Below, in pieces: positions 18,595 through 40,347 of a stretch of 54,558 nt of DNA (its first letter is position 1; each line of letters begins with the position of its first letter). This DNA is from a virus (taxonomy: Duplodnaviria; Caudoviricetes). The position numbers were made by a program, and so were the translations under genes. The DNA is taken from the IMG/VR virus record IMGVR_UViG_3300017991_000137, positions 1 through 54,558 of that record; one strand, 5' to 3'. The notes under the pieces were generated by a model. It searched no databases, was not told the origin of the DNA, and worked only from the letters and a program-made list of their open reading frames with translations.

Positions 18595-18966
18595 GTGCCT
18601 TCACGTTACTACCAACGCCTGTATGCCGACGCCTTCGAAAGGGATCGGGTGGCGTTGGCAACACTCATTCGCATGTTAGGCATGACGGAAGTCGATAAGC
18701 TGGTCTGGGATAAGGGCTTTTGGGAGCACGAACCTATCGACCAGGCAATGGAACACGCACGCGGTCTCACAGATATGAAGGACTGGTTTTACGACCGGCT
18801 AAAGAATATGCTAGTAGAGAACCGCGTGACCGTTCTGGGCGTCACCCCAGACAACACAGTGGAGCCGATACGCGATCCAGCGGTCATCGACTTCGACGAC
18901 GAGGTGTTCCATACCGAGGAAGCATTCTTCAACATTTTGGAGAAGATACGCACCCTCGACGACTGA
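18595..18966 (+). CDS. Hypothetical protein
   Basis: GGAGG RBS plus GTG start. Confidence 0.7.
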   Translation: MPSRYYQRLYADAFERDRVALATLIRMLGMTEVDKLVWDKGFWEHEPIDQAMEHARGLTDMKDWFYDRLKNMLVENRVTVLGVTPDNTVEPIRDPAVIDFDDEVFHTEEAFFNILEKIRTLDD

Positions 18967-18988
18967 ATTTTGTTCCGGAGAACAAGAT
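18967..18988. promoter_or_regulatory. 22-bp palindrome copy 4 (ATTTTGTTC-CGGA-GAACAAGAT)
   Basis: Fills the intergenic gap and overlaps the Mre11 ATG at 18987. Confidence 0.75.
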
Positions 18989-20165
18989 GCCGAGAAAGCC
19001 ACTTGCGATTATCACTGCCGATTGGCATATCCGACGTCAGGACCGTGTATGGTACCGCCGGGAGACTCTGTCCGGCGATACCAGCTACGGTATCCAACAG
19101 GTTGTCAATCTGGCCGAACACTACCGCCCGGAGGCCGTATTTCTCCTGGGCGACCTATTTGATCAGCGACTACAACAGTCCGATGCCCTGATGACAATGC
19201 GGCGTGCCATGAAGCAGTTTGAGTTCATGCATGTCGAAGTACCATTTGTCCAGGGGCAGCACGAACTGTCGTACCCACCGCTGATGTGCGCTATCCATGG
19301 GTGGCCTGACCACCGGCATTCTGAGACGTTCGAGGTGGGTAACGCCGTCGCGTATGGACTCGATTATCAGAGACCACGCGACGTTGAATCCGCCCTGAAT
19401 GATGTCCCGGAAGTTGACCTTCTTCTTACCCATCAGGTCTGGAAGGACTTCATGGGCGACGACCGCGGTGATGCCTGGTTCAGCTCGGCAACACCGTCGA
19501 TCATTGCAACGGGCGACTACCACAAGACGGTGGTCGCCGATTACGGAACCAAACGAGTGATTTCGCCCGGCCCGCTGTGTATGCAGAACATCGGGGAGGA
19601 GCCAGCCAAGAGCGTCGTGCTGCTTTACGACGATCTGACGACGGCAATCATCCCCCTCAAGAGCCGCGGAGTGTTTCACTGTCGGATACACACGGAAGAG
19701 GAGCTCCAGAGCTTCATCGACACCTGGAAAGACAACCCGGCACGCGTGCCGCAAGAGATGGTGCATACTAGCGTACGTACCAACATCCTGCGGGTATGGT
19801 ATCGGGCCGACATTCCAGAAGCACGTCCTCGGATTGAGGGCTGCGTCGGTAGCTCGGTGCATCTTTTCCTACAAGTGATGCCCGTTGAGGACCCACAGAT
19901 AACCCTCGATGCGGAACGGCGCGTGACCGCCGTGCTGCAAGGTGGGTTGGTAGGTTGCATCAACGAGCTATACAGCGAGAACCCGGCCGTCAGAGACGAC
20001 GCCATCAGGCTGGCTCGCACCAAAGACTTCAAATCTGAACTTCAACACTTGTATACCGAAAGACTTAAAGATGGCATTGACAGTGACGGAAAAGGAGTAC
20101 TTCCGACAAAGGCTCCGACAGATCCACGAACGGGAGAAACAGCGAATCGCGGCTGCGAACCCTGA
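18987..20165 (+). CDS. Mre11/SbcD-like nuclease
   Basis: ITADWH, LGDLFD, GQHE, LTHQ, GDYH, SPG motifs; Rad50 gene downstream. Confidence 0.85.
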   Translation: MPRKPLAIITADWHIRRQDRVWYRRETLSGDTSYGIQQVVNLAEHYRPEAVFLLGDLFDQRLQQSDALMTMRRAMKQFEFMHVEVPFVQGQHELSYPPLMCAIHGWPDHRHSETFEVGNAVAYGLDYQRPRDVESALNDVPEVDLLLTHQVWKDFMGDDRGDAWFSSATPSIIATGDYHKTVVADYGTKRVISPGPLCMQNIGEEPAKSVVLLYDDLTTAIIPLKSRGVFHCRIHTEEELQSFIDTWKDNPARVPQEMVHTSVRTNILRVWYRADIPEARPRIEGCVGSSVHLFLQVMPVEDPQITLDAERRVTAVLQGGLVGCINELYSENPAVRDDAIRLARTKDFKSELQHLYTERLKDGIDSDGKGVLPTKAPTDPRTGETANRGCEP

Positions 20166-21902: not shown

Positions 21903-22254
21903 CGCTCTGATGTACAGGGCTATCGAGAGTTTTTGTTCGTTCCGCCGTCTGCTCGAGGCTGCCATCCGGCACGCCAAGGAATGCGGCGACGCGCTCAACG
22001 AGATCATGGATGTCGTCGCACCAAAGACCAGCCAAGCCAGTAAGTGGGCCGCCTTCTGTACAGAGAAGTTGCCCATGGACTGCGACATGGCTGACAGGCT
22101 GCTGGACTTTTCCCTGCTGCCTAGCGTGACCCGCGACGATTTCCTTCCAGGCACAGCGAGAGAAGTATCGCTCCTCATGGAGCTCTTCGAATATCTCCTG
22201 CCAGAACAAGACGAGGACGAAGACGACGATGCTGATTCGCCGGATTCAACTTGA
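21883..22254 (+). CDS. Hypothetical protein with acidic tail
   Basis: AAGGAG RBS plus GTG start. Confidence 0.65.
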   Translation: MAKKVDDALMYRAIESFCSFRRLLEAAIRHAKECGDALNEIMDVVAPKTSQASKWAAFCTEKLPMDCDMADRLLDFSLLPSVTRDDFLPGTAREVSLLMELFEYLLPEQDEDEDDDADSPDST

Positions 22255-24352
22255 GAACTTTTGCCAGCACCGGCGCCAAGACATACGATTGGTGCCTGGA
22301 CTCAACATGATTGTTGGGTCCAACGGTGCTGGAAAAACGAACCTGCTGCGTGCCATCCAGTTTGCCATGATCGGAGATTCCGGCGGCGAACGGGAGAAGG
22401 CTGCAGACATCTACCAGGGCTGTGGCCCGAAAGACCGCTCATTCGTGCAGATGGAGTTCTCGCACGGCGAGCACGAGATGACCGTGACCCGAAGCCTGCA
22501 GCCGTCGTCCAACGAGTTGGTGATCGGCGAGGCGTCCTGGAGCACGGTCAACACGATCAACGAGGAGATCGGCCGACGGCTGGGTGCCAGCAAGCGGCAG
22601 ATCAGCGACTACGTGTTCGTGAAACAGCGAGGCGTCGACAGCATGTTCGACCAGAAGCCGGCGGAGCGAGCATCATCGCTTGCATCGCTATTTGGCCTGG
22701 AGAACGCCGAGAAGATCTGGCGGTACGTTGGCGAGTTCACCAAAGACATCGAGGTCCCTACCACATTGATGGGCGAGGCCGCGATCATGAACGAGCTCAC
22801 CGCCGCCCAGACAGCTGCCGACGACATCGTAGAGGAAATGGAGTCAATCGACATCCCGGAGGACGTCGAGGAGTACTCTGCCGATCAGAACCGGATCATT
22901 ACCGGCTTCGATACCAGACTGCGCCTTGCCAACGACCGCGATATCGTACAGAAGCGAATCGACGGTAAGCTTGGTGAGCTCGGCGAGCTTGCGGAAGAAA
23001 CGAAGGTCATCCAAGTCGACATCGACGCTTTGGCAGATGCCCTCGTGCACATCGCTGGCGATGTTGCCACGGCGAAGAAGAATCTGTCCCAGTGGCAGAC
23101 CTACCATGCGACCCAGGCAGCTCGCGAGCAACTTGCCAAGGACGAGGCCGACTACCAGAAACAGCGGGCCGACTTCGGCGAGATCCCGGACGAGCCCATC
23201 ATGGACGACGAGCAGCGAGAGCGGCTTACCAAGCTGCGTGCTACTTGTGCCACTCTGCGGCAGCGCATCAAGGACCTGGACAGCATGGCGACGATATGTC
23301 CCACGTGCAACCAGGAACTGCCCGATGCCCATACCGTGGGCGAACAGCTGGTCAATCTGCGAGAGACGCTACAGATTGCGGAGCATGACAAGCTGCCACT
23401 GGAAATGCTCGCCGAAGAGGTCGAGGAGTTCAAGAAGTGGCGGGAAGAATGTCAGGCGTTCGCCGACTGGAAGGCATCTCTTCAAGAACGGGCAGCGGCA
23501 TTGTCGACGCTAACCGCGCCGAACATGCCGGAGTCCGACTGCAAAGAGATCCTTGAAGAGCAGGAGTCGTTCTCCACCGCACTTGTTGATCTGCAGAAGG
23601 CGAAGACCGAGATTGAACAGGAACAGGCCAAAGTCGGTGGTGCTCTCGAGCAACTCCGCGAACGACTGGCCAACGTAACCAAGCAGTTGCAAGACATTCC
23701 TGTCGTGCTAGCAGAGGAAGCAGATACCGCACGGAGCAATCTTGGGTCTCTCCGTAACAAGCTCGGACAGCGCAATGAGCTCAGCCGCAACCTGGCTGTA
23801 GCACAAGCGACTATCCAACGCTGGGAGGATCTCCTCGGCGACGTACGCGCCACGCTGGAATCTGCGGGGCGAATACGCGAGGTCGTTGCCCACCTCGAAG
23901 AGGTGCGAAACGTCTTTCATCGCAATGAGGCTCCCCGTGTGGTAAGCTATACGTATATCGAGCAAATGCTCGAGGACGTGAACAGGACCCTCGAAATCTT
24001 CGAGGCGCCGTTCCGTGTCGAAATGGACGAGTATCTGGGTTTCACGGCACGCTTCTTAGATGGTGTGCGTGTGCAACCCGATCGACGACTGTCAGTTGGC
24101 GAACGAATCGTGTTGGCTATGGCGTTCCGGATCACCGTGAATGCTACATTCGCCGGCCAAGTGGGCTTGCTCATCATGGATGAGCCAACCGCAGGGCTGG
24201 ATGAACACAATCTTGGCTGCTTGCCGCGGGCCCTTGAGCGCCTACGTGAGCTGTCGCATGAGCGTGGCCTGCAAGTCCTGTTCGTCACCCATGAACCGAG
24301 GATTGGCCATCTCTTCGACCACCAGATCACACTCAACAATGAAGGCAGTTGA
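22229..24352 (+). CDS. Rad50/SbcC-like ATPase
   Basis: GSNGAGKT, coiled coils, CPTC Zn hook, LSVGE signature, MDEPT, VTH. Confidence 0.92.
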   Translation: MLIRRIQLENFCQHRRQDIRLVPGLNMIVGSNGAGKTNLLRAIQFAMIGDSGGEREKAADIYQGCGPKDRSFVQMEFSHGEHEMTVTRSLQPSSNELVIGEASWSTVNTINEEIGRRLGASKRQISDYVFVKQRGVDSMFDQKPAERASSLASLFGLENAEKIWRYVGEFTKDIEVPTTLMGEAAIMNELTAAQTAADDIVEEMESIDIPEDVEEYSADQNRIITGFDTRLRLANDRDIVQKRIDGKLGELGELAEETKVIQVDIDALADALVHIAGDVATAKKNLSQWQTYHATQAAREQLAKDEADYQKQRADFGEIPDEPIMDDEQRERLTKLRATCATLRQRIKDLDSMATICPTCNQELPDAHTVGEQLVNLRETLQIAEHDKLPLEMLAEEVEEFKKWREECQAFADWKASLQERAAALSTLTAPNMPESDCKEILEEQESFSTALVDLQKAKTEIEQEQAKVGGALEQLRERLANVTKQLQDIPVVLAEEADTARSNLGSLRNKLGQRNELSRNLAVAQATIQRWEDLLGDVRATLESAGRIREVVAHLEEVRNVFHRNEAPRVVSYTYIEQMLEDVNRTLEIFEAPFRVEMDEYLGFTARFLDGVRVQPDRRLSVGERIVLAMAFRITVNATFAGQVGLLIMDEPTAGLDEHNLGCLPRALERLRELSHERGLQVLFVTHEPRIGHLFDHQITLNNEGS

Positions 24353-25358
24353 TCGAAAAGCGTTGAAATTGCACGTATCGGACGGCAAGGTTTGGTACAT
24401 TCGCGGCGCCGGTATGCCGGAGCCATCGCATGTCTCTGTGGACGAGTTCTTGGAAGGGCCAGTTGCCCGATCCGCGGACCACTTCCGCCTTGTCGGCTCG
24501 CACAGCAACGCTGTGTTGATCACTAAATTGTTCCACCTCAAACAGAAGGATCTCATTTCCAGCGTAGAGGTAGCGACGCCGCTCGTCTGTGTTACAGAGG
24601 CAGAGCGACGTAACCCAGAGGCCATGTTGGCCCGCATGCGGTTGTGCTCCCAGCCTCCCAGCAAGGGCGGCTTCCACGAAGTGACAGAGAACGACTACAG
24701 ATCGTATGCGTTGTCCGTCGAAGTGCTAAAAGCCGCAAAACACGGAGCAGCAACCAGCAAGCAGGCCCTCCGGCTGTTGAACAGCCATCCCGCGTGGAAG
24801 GCACTATCGTTCATCACCTCTCTCGACCCGGCACACGTAGCCGGACTCATCTCGTATATCCGCGATCCACGGTGGTTCATCGACCCGTGCTATCCAGATC
24901 GGCTTGGCAAGCTTGAGGCTTCTTTGGGACTAAATCCGAAGACCCAAGCCGGTGTGGCTGGCGTAGCGCCCAAGTGGCGGCACCATCAGCGGTGCTCACT
25001 TGTGCTTCGCTGCTGGAAGAATGACGCCAAGATCCCGGAGGTTAAAGAGAACTTCGAATTGGTGACGCCATTACCCGTTCCGAGCTGTCATCAGATCGGT
25101 TTAGCGCCATACGATTTCGCATGGCGTGTATGGGGCAATCGTATGGGCATCGGTTTGCCCAACGTAGAGCCCAACCCCGTGCTCGCCGATCTGCGTGCGT
25201 CGCAACGTCTAATCGCGTTCCTTCGACACACATGGTTAAGCGAGCTTTATCTGGACTCTCAGGCTGTGCCTGAGATGCAAGCCCCGCTATTCCGTCCGCG
25301 AGACTTCTTCCACTACGAAACGGAAGTCGCAGCGTACGAAGAGCATTGCCTTATGTAA
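24339..25358 (+). CDS. Divergent IS110/Nop-domain (Tas-like) protein, apparently lacking DEDD catalytic residues
   Basis: HPAWKALSFITSLDPAHVAGLISYIRDPRWF...KLEASLGLNP and RASQRLIAFLRHTW resemble the Transposase_20/Nop domain; N-terminus has RNase H-like strand/helix order. Confidence 0.55.
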   Translation: MKAVDRKALKLHVSDGKVWYIRGAGMPEPSHVSVDEFLEGPVARSADHFRLVGSHSNAVLITKLFHLKQKDLISSVEVATPLVCVTEAERRNPEAMLARMRLCSQPPSKGGFHEVTENDYRSYALSVEVLKAAKHGAATSKQALRLLNSHPAWKALSFITSLDPAHVAGLISYIRDPRWFIDPCYPDRLGKLEASLGLNPKTQAGVAGVAPKWRHHQRCSLVLRCWKNDAKIPEVKENFELVTPLPVPSCHQIGLAPYDFAWRVWGNRMGIGLPNVEPNPVLADLRASQRLIAFLRHTWLSELYLDSQAVPEMQAPLFRPRDFFHYETEVAAYEEHCLM

Positions 25359-25367
25359 AGGATAACC

Positions 25368-25742
25368 ATGTTAAATCCAAGTGACGTTCAAGAAGCCGTA
25401 CGCGCCAAACTCGCAGCCGAGATCGTCGAGCGATTGACGCCCGACGAGATCACGGCGTTGTTGACCAACACGCTTACTGCGCTGTTGGAGGAGTGGACGT
25501 TCAAGACCGAACTCCGTGATGCGCTGGCCAAGCGGGCGAGGAAGATAGCGAAGGAGATCCTCAAGAGTGAAGAGTGGGAAGGCAAGATCCGTCAAGCTGT
25601 GATGGACGGATTCGATGACTATCTCGAAAACCTTAGTCCTGCTTTGGAGGACACGCTGAACGACACCTTCATCGGCAGCAGTGGCCAGTTCGGGCATCAG
25701 TCCCGACTGGGCTATTTTCTGGAAAAGCGGACAGGTAGTTGA
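25368..25742 (+). CDS. Hypothetical helical protein
   Basis: AAGGA RBS. Confidence 0.7.
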   Translation: MLNPSDVQEAVRAKLAAEIVERLTPDEITALLTNTLTALLEEWTFKTELRDALAKRARKIAKEILKSEEWEGKIRQAVMDGFDDYLENLSPALEDTLNDTFIGSSGQFGHQSRLGYFLEKRTGS

Positions 25743-25815
25743 CCACTAAATATGGGACACGTCTCCCATATGGATACAAAATATGGGATACTACCCAGCA
25801 CGTCAGTTTTGCCCG

Positions 25816-25844
25816 TTGACAGGATCGGCGGGGCTGGGTAGTAT
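25816..25844 (+). promoter_or_regulatory. Sigma70-type promoter of the RAMP-like gene
   Basis: TTGACA-17-TAGTAT, inside a 13-bp inverted repeat (25787-25799/25833-25845). Confidence 0.75.
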
Positions 25845-25875
25845 CGGGAGAGTCGATGGGTAAAAGGATGGACCC

Positions 25876-26310
25876 GTGACCGAGATTGAAGTAACGTTGC
25901 AGTTCAACCAGCACTCGCTGGGCGACTGCCGACATAAGAAGATCAGCAGGATGCTGCGGGACCCAAACGGCCGCGTAATGTTCCTGCCCACTTGGTGGCA
26001 GGCTCTCATGCGTTACGCGGCTAAAGTCGTCAATAGGCATCACGATGATGTCAATGACATCGATTGGGCACCTGTTGTGGACGGCGAAACGACGGAGTTC
26101 AAACGGTATTATGCGCAAGGGAGGTACACCGTCCACGAAGCGTTCTTTCCCGGCGACAAGATCGTCGTGCATGCAGTCCTACCACACACCATTCCGGTGG
26201 AGGACTTCCGGGAACTTCTAAGTACCGCGGGCAAGTACCGCGGCATCAGTCCGTACAAGCCGGACCGATATGGAACATTTGAGGTAATCGACGTCAGGAA
26301 AACACGATGA
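25876..26310 (+). CDS. Stand-alone minimal RAMP (Cas7/Csm3-like) protein
   Basis: N-terminal strand IEVTLQF..HSLG; RDPNGRVMFLPTWWQALMRYAA (cf. PxIPGSSxKGxxR); HEAFFPG; G-loop LLSTAGKYRGISP...YGTFEV. Confidence 0.6.
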   Translation: MTEIEVTLQFNQHSLGDCRHKKISRMLRDPNGRVMFLPTWWQALMRYAAKVVNRHHDDVNDIDWAPVVDGETTEFKRYYAQGRYTVHEAFFPGDKIVVHAVLPHTIPVEDFRELLSTAGKYRGISPYKPDRYGTFEVIDVRKTR

Positions 26311-26438
26311 AAGACACAAGCAAAGAGTGCCGGAACTTCAAGTACTACAAGGGCAAGCATAAGCCCCGGTGCAACGGCGGCAAGCCATGTGAGGCATGCC
26401 AGAAGAAGTTCGAAGAAGAGCAACGCAAGCGCGGATAA
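26307..26438 (+). CDS. 43-aa Cys-rich Zn micro-protein (not in ORF track)
   Basis: MKDTSKECRNFKYYKGKHKPRCNGGKPCEACQKKFEEEQRKRG; ATGA-coupled to the RAMP gene; AGGA RBS. Confidence 0.65.
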   Translation: MKDTSKECRNFKYYKGKHKPRCNGGKPCEACQKKFEEEQRKRG

Positions 26439-26444
26439 CGACAT

Positions 26445-26474
26445 AAAAAAGGCCCGACGGGTCAGGTCGGGCCT
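26445..26474 (-). terminator. Intrinsic terminator oriented on the minus strand
   Basis: AGGCCCGAC/GTCGGGCCT stem followed by U6 on the minus strand. Confidence 0.7.
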
Positions 26475-26550
26475 AAAATTCATGACCTTGTAGGACGCGG
26501 TCATTCGGGCGGTATTACTGCCAATGATAGCTGATCCTGCGCAGTCGGTC
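26445..26550 (-). ncRNA. Candidate ~105-nt small RNA convergent on the RAMP operon
   Basis: Minus-strand TTGACA-16-CATAGT promoter (26583-26556), internal hairpins, and a minus-strand intrinsic terminator; no credible ORF. Confidence 0.55.
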
Positions 26551-26582
26551 AACCCACTATGGGAAGACCTTGTGGATTGTCA

Positions 26583-28118
26583 ATGGCAAATAAGGCGGTA
26601 ATTCGTAAGGGCGGGCCTCTCATCGAGATAGCCGACGAACACGGTAATCCCCTCCCGCCACACGTGTATCGAGAGCTCGAAAGGCCTCTATATTACACGC
26701 ATATCACGATGAACTTCGGTGCTCGGGCGTACAACGCCAACACGGGCAACCGGCAGGATCGTGTTACCCAGCGACGTCGGCTGTTCCAGTACGACAACGC
26801 CGGGCGGCTCTGCTGCCAGAAGGGTTTCTACCCCAAACTTCGCAAGATTTTGCTTGGGCTGGGCTACGAGATCATCTACATCGACAAGGATCCGCCGAAA
26901 GATCCACGCATCTATACCCCCGACTGGGACCGACTCTTCGAGCGGTTCACACTCCGTCCAAAACAGGAGGATTGTCTCGCCCAGATCGACATGCACGAGT
27001 ACGGCATCATCGACGCACCACCTGCGTTCGGTAAGACGTACATCATGGCGATGATCGCGTCCATCTACAAGCACGCGAAGATCGATATCGTCACCAAGAG
27101 GAAGGACGTCGTGCTGACCATCAAAGACCTGCTGACGCGCTGGATCCCCAGTGTAGGCCAGGTCGGTGGCGGAAAGCGACGAGATGCGAGGGTGACGGTG
27201 TACACTGCCGACAGCCTGCATCACTCCAACTTCAATGCTGACATCCTGCTGGCTGACGAAGGTCATGAGCTCATGACCGACCGGCTGGCCAAGCAGCTCG
27301 GCAACTATCATCACAGTCGGAACTTCACGTTCACGGCGACGTCCGATATGCGGCTCGACAACGCCCACTACCGTATGGAGGGCATCTTCGGGCCGAAGAT
27401 CTTCAAGATGACGCAGCAGGAGGCTGAGAGCTACAATCTGGTGGCGCCGATCACGGTACAGTGGTTGGACGTCCATATCGATCCCAATCCGGTTGCACAT
27501 CTGCAGTCGTTGGTAGCACAGAAGCGTAACGGCCTCTGGCGTAACCAGCACCGCAACGCCGTGATAGCGCAGGCGGCCAGAGAGTTCGTGCAGCGAGAGC
27601 AGCAGGTGCTGATCCTCGTCGACACTATCGACCATGCGTTGCACCTGCGGAAGCTGCTACCAGAGGCAGAGCTGTGCTACTCGGAAGGAGCACTCCAAGA
27701 TCCCGAGAAGCGTCAGCGATACATCAATGCGGACCTTCTCGCGCCGCACGAAGAGATGACGACCGAGCGACGACTCTCGCTGCGACAGCGGTTCGAGCGT
27801 CGGGACATCATGTGCTGCATCGCCACTGGCGTGTGGGCTGTGGGTGTCAGCTTCGACTCGCTCAACGTATTGATCCGTGCAGATGCGGGTGCCAGTGAAA
27901 CGGCAAACGTGCAGCTGCCCGGACGTGTGTGTCGTGTTGACCCGGGCTCCGGGAAGCAGTGCGGCATCATGGTAGACTTCATGGATCTCTGGGACGGCAA
28001 GTTCAAGGGACGGTCCATGGCACGTCGTAGAGACTATGACAAGCGAGGCTGGACACAGCTCCGGCCAAACGGTGAAGTTTGGGCCCCAGGAACGAGGTAC
28101 AAACGTGTCGGTACATAA
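26583..28118 (+). CDS. Superfamily 2 (UvsW/XPB-like) DExH helicase
   Basis: LRPKQ, PPAFGKT, DEGH, TAT, ATGVWAVGVSF, QLPGRVCR. Confidence 0.88.
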   Translation: MANKAVIRKGGPLIEIADEHGNPLPPHVYRELERPLYYTHITMNFGARAYNANTGNRQDRVTQRRRLFQYDNAGRLCCQKGFYPKLRKILLGLGYEIIYIDKDPPKDPRIYTPDWDRLFERFTLRPKQEDCLAQIDMHEYGIIDAPPAFGKTYIMAMIASIYKHAKIDIVTKRKDVVLTIKDLLTRWIPSVGQVGGGKRRDARVTVYTADSLHHSNFNADILLADEGHELMTDRLAKQLGNYHHSRNFTFTATSDMRLDNAHYRMEGIFGPKIFKMTQQEAESYNLVAPITVQWLDVHIDPNPVAHLQSLVAQKRNGLWRNQHRNAVIAQAAREFVQREQQVLILVDTIDHALHLRKLLPEAELCYSEGALQDPEKRQRYINADLLAPHEEMTTERRLSLRQRFERRDIMCCIATGVWAVGVSFDSLNVLIRADAGASETANVQLPGRVCRVDPGSGKQCGIMVDFMDLWDGKFKGRSMARRRDYDKRGWTQLRPNGEVWAPGTRYKRVGT

Positions 28119-39237: not shown

Positions 39238-40347
39238 ATGGCCAAAACAACTTTGCCTGCGAAGGTAGAGCAGTGGACTGCGTTGCAGGCGCAGTCTTCG
39301 TTTACAGCGGCGGAAAAGGCCGCGTACAAGGATCTCCGGACCCGCGTCGATCAGATCGAAAAGGATACGATCTGGTGGTACTGGGAGCTCGGAAAGAAGA
39401 TTCAAGAGATCTACAAAGACGCCCAGAGCGATCAAGAGCTGTATGGTGCCAATCTGTTGGACCGGCTCGGCATCGCCCTCGGTTTCAGCAACGGACGTCC
39501 TCTGCGGGAGTCCATGCAGGTTGTCGACACGTTCGGCACCAAGAAGCTCTTCATGACGTACGTCAAGCTGAAGGGCGAAGCGGGCAACAGCCTCAGCTGG
39601 TCGCACTTGAAGCACCTGGCGAAGATTGGCGATGACGATCGGCGTATGCAGCTGGCCTCTACGGCTGTCGCCAAGAATCAAACTGCCGATGTTCTCCGTC
39701 AGCGTGTCCAGGAGTACTGTGACAGCAAGAAGCGGGGCTCCGGCCGCAAGCCAAAGACCAAGATCCCGACGACGGCCCGCAGCATGCTCACGCATGTCAC
39801 CTCGCAGTCCAACAAGTTCATCGAGAACTTCGACAAGGCATGGACCGGCGACGCGTTCAGCATCACCGACCAAGTCCACGAGATCCCCTCGGACAAGTTG
39901 GATGACAAGCTCACCGGCGCTTTGGCAGCGACGAAGGTGTCGTTGGAGGATATGCGGGATCGCGCCGACGAGCTGATCGACCAGCTCATGGCGGCGGAAG
40001 AGGACGTCGAGAAACGCATGAAGGCGCAGGCAGAAGCCGATGAGGCTGCTGCAGAGGAAGCGGAGCTCGAAGAGGAAGAGTACGAAGACGACGAACTCGA
40101 AGAGGAAGAGTACGAGGAAGTCGAATACGAAGAGGACGACGAGGAAGAAGAGGAAGAGGATGAAGACGTCGTCGCTGAAGTCGAGGAAGACGAAGAAGAG
40201 GAAGAAGAGGAAGACGATGACGAAGTCGTCAGCCTCAGCGAAGAACGCAATCGCAAGGAGCGAGCGAAGCGGGCTGCCGAGCGGGCCAAGAAGCGTAAGC
40301 GGACTGGCAAGCAGGGCCCGACACGCCGCGGACGCGTCGGCATATGA
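39238..40347 (+). CDS. DUF1016 N-terminal (YhcG-like) domain protein with long acidic tract and basic tail
   Basis: YWELGKKI...YGANLLDRL...LSWSHL..L; E/D run; K/R-rich end. Confidence 0.65.
   Translation: MAKTTLPAKVEQWTALQAQSSFTAAEKAAYKDLRTRVDQIEKDTIWWYWELGKKIQEIYKDAQSDQELYGANLLDRLGIALGFSNGRPLRESMQVVDTFGTKKLFMTYVKLKGEAGNSLSWSHLKHLAKIGDDDRRMQLASTAVAKNQTADVLRQRVQEYCDSKKRGSGRKPKTKIPTTARSMLTHVTSQSNKFIENFDKAWTGDAFSITDQVHEIPSDKLDDKLTGALAATKVSLEDMRDRADELIDQLMAAEEDVEKRMKAQAEADEAAAEEAELEEEEYEDDELEEEEYEEVEYEEDDEEEEEEDEDVVAEVEEDEEEEEEEDDDEVVSLSEERNRKERAKRAAERAKKRKRTGKQGPTRRGRVGI
40066..40115 (+). repeat. 20-bp direct repeat inside the acidic tract
   Basis: CTCGAAGAGGAAGAGTACGA at 40066 and 40096. Confidence 0.8.

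Follow-up and report, generated by a model that had tools for sequence, protein, structure and literature searches.

The DNA analyzed here is a 54,558-bp IMG/VR viral record (IMGVR_UViG_3300017991_000137), referred to in its full length as the window, which CheckV rates as about 25% complete. Two of its genes, gpA and gpC, lie between a gene for a rad50/SbcC-like ATPase and one for an SF2 DNA helicase, and the proteins they encode resemble Tas/IS110/Nop proteins in one case and Cas7 RAMPs in the other, which form the backbones of two distinct families of RNA-guided systems. The start of gpA overlaps the stop of rad50, and all genes around the pair are on the + strand, running from an open reading frame (ORF) labelled mre11 through rad50, gpA, gpB, gpC, gpD and the helicase to a 255-amino acid (aa) protein (Table 1). 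An earlier note on this DNA had described the region as a candidate RNA-guided module made up of a dead IS110/Nop-like protein, a solo RAMP, a small Cys protein and a small RNA; all the features that it named lie where it placed them, and gpB went unlisted there.

When IMG/VR was scanned by alignment, gpA gave 44 loci and gpC gave 68; de-duplication by protein sequence left 68 distinct relatives, whose contigs reach about 230 kb. The order mre11-rad50-gpA-gpC-SF2 helicase-dnaB-primase is colinear and on one strand in all 68, with gpA present in 67, gpC in 57, rad50 in 67, the SF2 helicase in 67, the dnaB-like gene in 65, the primase in 63 and the mre11-labelled ORF in 64. A rad50 match is located upstream of gpA in 67 of the 68, and the SF2 helicase follows gpC or gpA in the same number. 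Both gpA and gpC occur in 56 relatives, 40 of which separate them by 15 nucleotides (nt) or less; the gaps around the pair are 1-10 nt in most relatives, where gpC is mostly promoterless and coupled to gpA. This synteny, proposed as a check by the earlier note, supports an evolutionary link between gpA and gpC, and of both with the SF2 helicase.

Table 1. Position, strand and description of the genes and signals in the gpA/gpC region of the window.
Feature	Position	Strand	Description
mre11-labelled ORF	18720-20165	+	label from position and reading of the sequence only
rad50/SbcC-like ATPase	22229-24352	+	Pfam AAA_23 (3e-17) and SMC_N (1e-16); PHROG 77, SbcC-like (8e-39)
gpA	24339-25358	+	339 aa; RuvC-like domain at about residues 1-110, Nop domain at about 119-337
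gpB	25368-25742	+	124-aa acidic helical protein (isoelectric point 4.9); lineage-specific insert between gpA and gpC
Operator-like cluster	25745-25788		three ATATGGGA copies, two direct and one inverted, giving a dyad and a direct repeat
Promoter of gpC	25816-25844	+	sigma-70-like, TTGACA-N17-TAGTAT
gpC	25876-26310	+	144 aa, GTG start; Cas7/Csm3/Cmr4-like RRM core, C-terminal G-rich loop
gpD	26307-26438	+	43-aa basic ORF with 4 Cys, isoelectric point 9.65; its ATG overlaps the gpC stop as ATGA
Small RNA	26441-26517	-	about 75 nt, putative ends; 5' single strand, hairpin UGACC/GGUCA with C/U-rich loop, then terminator
Intrinsic terminator hairpin	26474-26450	-	9 bp, 7 of them GC; T-run on the minus strand only
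Promoter of the small RNA	26552-26524	-	sigma-70-like, TTGACC-N17-TATCAT
SF2 DNA helicase	26559-28118	+	ResIII (6.5e-8), Helicase_C (2e-7), PHROG 16 (3e-38)
Large ORFs 3' of the 255-aa protein		+	DnaB-like helicase, primase and DNA polymerase, labelled from reading of the translations only

The gpA protein of the window matches no Pfam family, and among Pfam and PHROG its only sequence hint is PHROG 4285, annotated 'transposase', at an E-value of 5e-4. In a 5.8-billion-protein set 41 homologs were found, and a profile search of 1.84 billion representatives returned 967 at E<=1e-3, 812 at <=1e-10 and 526 at <=1e-30; lengths are about 280-355 aa among the 150 matches listed. The 967 cluster representatives are viral almost throughout, and identity to gpA falls as low as 24% among the relatives. 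The sole gpA relative in 185,579 species genomes (L115, 27% identity) is on a 6.9-kb contig of a Planctomycetota metagenome-assembled genome; it either hints weakly at the phylum of the host or comes from a phage contig that was binned with that genome.

An AlphaFold2 model of gpA built from a 32-sequence alignment has a mean pLDDT of 93.6 and a pTM of 0.91. Foldseek places it nearest to the IS621 recombinase and TIGR-TasR, weakly by E-value (about 1e-2, probability 0.98), and the Nop-domain fold of TasR is present. At the level of sequence, the NCBIfam model TIGR_Tas_endo (NF052498) aligns with residues 129-200 of the window protein at an E-value of 0.024 and 14.6-15.3 bits, against a cut-off of 100 bits; it is the sole family that recurs across the gpA family, matching 26 of 32 members (best 5.5e-7) and, at E<=0.01, 64 of 144 diverse representatives (best 3.7e-10). 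These sub-threshold matches indicate a distant relative of TasR that is not a curated member. Models for IS110 appear sporadically, NF033542 in two of 32 members and Transposase_20, always below cut-off, in one of 32 and two of 143, and neither DEDD_Tnp_IS110 nor Transposase_20 is above threshold for the window protein or found in a six-frame search. In the ESM Atlas, the nearest named clusters (score 0.90) contain Transposase_20 in 14-28% of their members, which serves as a lead only. Searches of solved-structure sequences with family profiles gave nothing relevant. Structurally and by profile gpA is nearer to Tas than to IS110. It is a distant, divergent protein of the Tas (Nop-domain) family whose N-terminal domain is RuvC-like and degenerate.

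The degeneracy of this domain is seen in an alignment of 181 sequences, in which the catalytic positions were mapped by secondary-structure order and conservation. The strand-1 position is His in 69%, the strand-4 position is Glu or Gln (63% and 28%), and near the usual third and fourth catalytic sites only H113 (94%) and D119 (81%) are conserved. The position that we equate, by an approximate mapping through the IS110 motif L-G-L-x-P-x-x-x-S-G, with the serine nucleophile of IS110 is Ala, Arg or Ser in 28, 23 and 9%. Neither the DEDD RuvC site nor the serine nucleophile of IS110 is thus found in gpA across these sequences. As the catalytic positions are not conserved, gpA very probably has neither nuclease nor recombinase activity, in keeping with the dead IS110/Nop-like protein named in the earlier note. 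The longest helices in the model are of 18 and 24 residues and no long coiled-coil hairpin is evident, as judged by helix length.

The second protein, gpC, is in contrast to its known counterparts a minimal one. Its 66 homologs are about 100-218 aa long, no Pfam family matches beyond weak sub-cut-off hits, and membership in Cas7, Csm3 or Cmr profiles is unsupported (PADLOC Cmr6 in 2 of 51 and Cas7b in 1 of 51, at E-values of at least 0.037). The ESM Atlas places it among unnamed viral clusters only, and a BFVD fold search gave three matches at E<=1e-3, one of them a named RAMP protein and none of similar size. The model has a pLDDT of 96.2, and Cmr-beta, Csm3 and the type VII Cas7 head its 115 PDB matches at E<=1e-3; the RRM-based RAMP fold is present together with a C-terminal glycine-rich loop containing invariant G119, Y121, G123, G133 and F135, a loop that we take to be the RAMP hallmark. 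Also invariant are R77, H87 and E88, which with Y121 presumably are residue types of metal-independent RAMP RNases. The loop after strand 1, which we take to be the place of the catalytic Asp of Csm3, is not conserved. Thus gpC is a stripped-down Cas7-type RAMP core of about two-thirds the size of Csm3, and the reading of both proteins in the earlier note is borne out by their folds.

Both gpA and gpC are basic. That two RNA-binding lineages should be co-translated between rad50 and an SF2 helicase across a very large and deeply diverged viral clade suggests a joint core role in DNA metabolism, probably with an RNA component. The preferred reading, given a probability of roughly 45%, is that the two proteins derive from RNA-guided systems and have become fixed core components of an operon for phage replication/recombination. 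In uncultured jumbo phages of a very large clade they would be transcribed within the mre11-rad50-gpA-gpC-SF2 helicase-dnaB-primase series, mostly with translational coupling. Together they would make up an accessory that binds nucleic acid, is nuclease-dead, probably contains RNA, and acts on phage DNA along with Mre11-Rad50 and the SF2 helicase. Recombination-dependent replication and the handling of RNA:DNA hybrids or branched DNA are candidate roles. Among the roles that the earlier note had offered, replication and recombination are favored over phage-phage competition, since the position after rad50 in a replication/recombination operon is fixed; the pair is not thought to be an array-programmed targeting or defence system.

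An array or guide RNA was looked for across the window. No tandem or interspaced array is present in the 54.5 kb, bar an acidic coding repeat near 40.0-40.2 kb, and neither Cas1, tRNAs nor Rfam families were found, which agrees with the earlier note in that no cas1, CRISPR array or TIGR array is visible. No TIGR array of the dual-repeat or stem-loop kind adjoins gpA in the window, which covers about 25% of the genome. Stem-loop tigRNA units of the PateTasR type (CUU-N8-12-UG-N3-12-CUU-N8-12-UG, stem of at least 5 bp) number 0 in the window, as against 1 in total over 20 shuffles, and the motif may differ in the gpA clade. A synonymous-site scan of gpA, gpC and the helicase in 35 main-clade sequences gave no peak inside gpA (maximum 0.52, mean 0.415) and a lone peak where gpC and the helicase overlap. 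The RNA-guided ribonucleoprotein that gpA and gpC might form is an inferred one, no guide RNA having been found in the window.

Conserved non-coding gaps in the relatives were considered as a candidate RNA of the pair and rejected, as they correspond to tRNAs and to another RNA 5-7 kb upstream. The latter is conserved and about 170 nt long; it stands immediately upstream of a tRNA gene, 5-7 kb upstream of gpA, in 14 related loci (among them L070:1376-1560, L079:479-656 and L081:659-839) and is absent from the window. Its consensus fold consists of 41 pairs, of which 7 show compensatory changes, and it has no match in Rfam.

These searches bear on the possibility that gpA is a truly RNA-guided DNA binder, comparable to dead TasR/TasA repressors, with a tigRNA-like guide elsewhere in the genome of about 200 kb or inside a gene, and with gpC as the missing guide-processing endoribonuclease or a guide-coating subunit. 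Such a particle might act by gene silencing, or by opening a defined site such as an origin at which DnaB is loaded. Tas being the nearest fold and the only recurrent sequence family of gpA speaks for it, as do the invariant R77, H87, E88 and Y121 of gpC, which would presumably suit an RNase, and the small share of the genome that the window represents. A preprint (Xu et al. 2026, 10.64898/2026.09.09.750476) adds precedents: dead TasR and TasA act as RNA-guided repressors, stem-loop tigRNAs can occupy flexible or intragenic positions with the maturation enzyme unknown, and a long branch of TasR proteins that are compact and have neither the coiled-coil nor arrays occurs in densely packed viral genomes, the source of its RNA being left open. 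The gpA family may be this divergent arrayless branch. Set against this are the lack of any array, repeat or stem-loop unit in the window, the lack of a synonymous-site peak inside gpA, the gaps of 1-10 nt that most relatives leave around the pair, and the slot after rad50 in a core operon, which would be unusual for a targeting or defence module. The guided binder is on balance unlikely, though it is the foremost of the alternatives.

The opposite possibility is that RNA binding has been lost, leaving gpA and gpC to serve the Mre11-Rad50/helicase machinery as scaffolds or as subunits that bind DNA structure-specifically. NurA and HerA, partners in archaeal mre11-rad50 operons, offer an analogy for such a role. 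Two independent RNA-binding lineages side by side are hard to explain without RNA, and the Tas-matching Nop region includes HPAW and DPRW, among the most conserved motifs of the family, so a protein-only exaptation is improbable, more so than the guided binder.

Several points weigh against the RNA-containing accessory preferred here. The array or guide could lie in the portion of the genome outside the window, and all Tas, IS110 and Cas7 proteins characterised so far work, to our knowledge, with a guide RNA, a point in favor of a truly guided mechanism. The pair is not obligate, as gpC is absent from 10 of the 67 relatives bearing gpA and gpA from one bearing gpC (L100). Kinship to Tas amounts to some 15 of the 100 bits that the NCBIfam model demands, and 7 of 14 control genomes also have weak matches to that model. 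The conserved H113 (94%) and D119 (81%) could still belong to an active site, the catalytic mapping being one by secondary-structure order and conservation. Binding of RNA or DNA by gpA and gpC is a predicted property, and gene order alone is what suggests the replication/recombination role. Joint action of the two proteins may be expected from their linkage, and complex prediction with their own alignments, at a score of 0.00 in both runs, gave no verdict for or against it.

The 120-nt spacer in front of the helicase contains a minus-strand promoter and a terminator hairpin, and hence the small RNA that the earlier note had seen. Its fold has a z-score of -2.8, and the unit recurs in 6 of the 68 relatives (L002, L003, L007, L010, L011 and L013), of which L007 and L013 are without gpC. 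When the 7 sequences are aligned, TTGAC and TA..AT are invariant with a varying spacer; the hairpin has 5-6 bp and a C/U-rich loop of 11-14 nt, and 4 of the 11 consensus pairs show compensatory changes. The G-U pairs are valid on the minus strand only and would be C-A mismatches on the + strand, while the terminator part of the alignment (A4) is inconsistent. Because the promoter is conserved, the hairpin carries compensatory changes and the G-U pairs fit one strand, the unit is, as far as sequence comparison goes, a genuine small transcription unit of the sub-lineage of the window.

The further suggestion that this RNA is the guide of a gpA/gpC particle fares much worse, even though a conserved unit with its own promoter, hairpin and terminator abutting gpC is what one might look for in a guide. 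It is confined to 6 relatives, two of them lacking gpC; its 11-14-nt loop is too small to hold two spacers of 8-12 nt; it has no complementarity of at least 12 nt elsewhere in the window; and it is neither in Rfam nor similar to a tigRNA or bridge RNA. A guide function is for these reasons the least likely of the alternatives, and most simply the transcript is a cis-encoded regulatory RNA at the gpC/helicase junction.

The promoter of gpC has the same consensus at the matching place in L002, L007, L010, L011 and L013. TTGAC[ACT]-N16-18-TAnnAT has two matches only in the window, this promoter (+) and that of the small RNA (-); as about one match is expected by chance on our own arithmetic, the weight of the promoters rests on their conservation in relatives. 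The copies of ATATGGGA are the only three in the window and are located 30-70 nt upstream of the gpC promoter, and analogous dyads precede the promoter in L002, L007, L010 and L013, so the cluster looks like the operator of some regulator. The relatives have dyads of their own, together with a common ACAAAAT[AG]T[AG]GG-like motif at the operator-like position. In the close relatives L013 (8036-8225) and L007 (8439-8600) the + strand promoter is kept in the absence of gpC, firing about 60-110 nt before the shared hairpin, and two short convergent transcripts may meet there.

A strong sigma-70-like promoter of its own and an operator-like dyad give gpC in this sub-lineage an arrangement that resembles early anti-defence operons. 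The pair could on that account act in counter-defence, with gpC mimicking Cas7 and gpA mimicking Tas/IS110 so as to sequester the crRNAs, tigRNAs or bridge RNAs of the host in the manner of anti-CRISPR-like decoys. In most relatives, however, gpC is promoterless and coupled to gpA, and the genes keep to a conserved replication operon over very divergent phages where a patchy spread would be expected; no PADLOC family match goes beyond an E-value of 0.05. Decoys are accordingly very unlikely, if slightly less so than the small RNA as a guide.

The remaining small genes follow the same pattern of local addition. No family matches gpB, which has a homolog in only one of the 68 relatives (L007). 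The Cys protein gpD, which the earlier note had counted as part of the module, is indeed coupled to gpC by the ATGA overlap; it is an orphan that matches no Pfam family and has no counterpart in any of the 68 relatives, and is thus not a conserved component. Its derivation as a split-off gpC tail was rejected, as homolog tails are without the Cys motif. Together with the convergent promoters and the minus-strand small RNA, gpB and gpD are add-ons of the sub-lineage to which the window belongs. Small genes are inserted at the junction of gpA and gpC as at a hot spot, and differing ones are seen in L018, L026, L037, L073, L080 and L110. One further locus (L023) ends inside gpC. A single 3.2-kb contig encodes a 477-aa protein (P0251) that reads as an in-frame gpA-gpC fusion with a divergent C-terminal end, either real or an artefact of sequencing or frameshift.

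The helicase has only generic ResIII and Helicase_C domains plus weak RecG/RecQ-like matches. Its start is ambiguous, as the N-termini of relatives (M-x-x-x-A-[VI]-[VI]-[RK]-K-G-G) fit the ATG at 26583 rather than that at 26559; with a start at 26583, the helicase gene and the minus-strand promoter would stand back-to-back. Searches of a cultured-phage collection by tblastn and blastn gave no match to the region, gpA, gpC or the helicase, and GC skew has no turn near 26 kb and so gives no origin signal. The acidic repeat in the window is a long Glu/Asp-rich coding repeat at 39997-40239 (GAAGAG-type, 16 overlapping copies) within a + strand ORF.

The pairing of gpA and gpC is real and conserved, and full-text literature searches found no earlier report of a Tas/Nop-RAMP pairing. 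TasA, TasH and TasR, including forms with an inactivated RuvC, were defined by Faure et al. 2025 (PMC12045711), a paper that also ties Tas to IS110 and to the box C/D Nop proteins; the terms 'Cas7' and 'RAMP' have 0 occurrences in the accessible text of that paper and of the preprint cited above (10.64898/2026.09.09.750476). For the question of what arrayless viral TasR proteins do, the pair supplies a partner protein and a fixed context. Should RNA be involved, RNA-guided or RNA-scaffolded chemistry would have been recruited into core phage DNA metabolism. Compact dead binders of this kind are also relevant to tool builders.

A bolder form of the argument, in which Nop-type (Tas) and RAMP-type (Cas7) subunits share one RNA in a nuclease-free core replication/recombination particle of jumbo phages, would be a third RNA-guided architecture. 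Such a particle might separate the two DNA strands at a defined site, in the way of the dual spacers of tigRNAs, and so load the SF2 or DnaB helicase; alternatively, it might stabilize R-loops for recombination-dependent replication. It is a speculative proposal, held to be doubtful, though it would for the first time unite the box C/D-TIGR-IS110 and CRISPR RAMP lineages in function and would answer where the 'arrayless TasR' proteins obtain their RNA.

In comparing the pair to known systems, type IV CRISPR effectors with a DinG helicase differ in that Csf1, Csf3, Cas6 and an array are absent from the window, the helicase has generic domains only, and the context is phage replication; the full set of Csf1, Csf2, Csf3 and Cas6 with DinG and array is not found. 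Unlike the Cas7-type RAMPs of types III, VII and IV (Csm3, Cmr4/6, type VII Cas7 and Csf2), which are about 200-300 aa, gpC has 144 aa and so lacks their large insertions; it also has no significant sequence-profile match, nor cas genes or a CRISPR array in the window. The IS110 bridge-RNA recombinases (IS621, ISCro4) differ from gpA in that it conserves neither DEDD nor a serine at the expected motif position, and its locus is without transposon ends and bridge RNA. The locus shows no mobility but a stable synteny, the position after rad50 being constant in 67 of 68 relatives. The closest comparison is to TIGR-Tas with a dead TasR, from which gpA differs in having no nearby TIGR array, no evident coiled-coil hairpin and a score far below the curated cut-off, and in being fixed within a replication/recombination operon with a RAMP as its partner.

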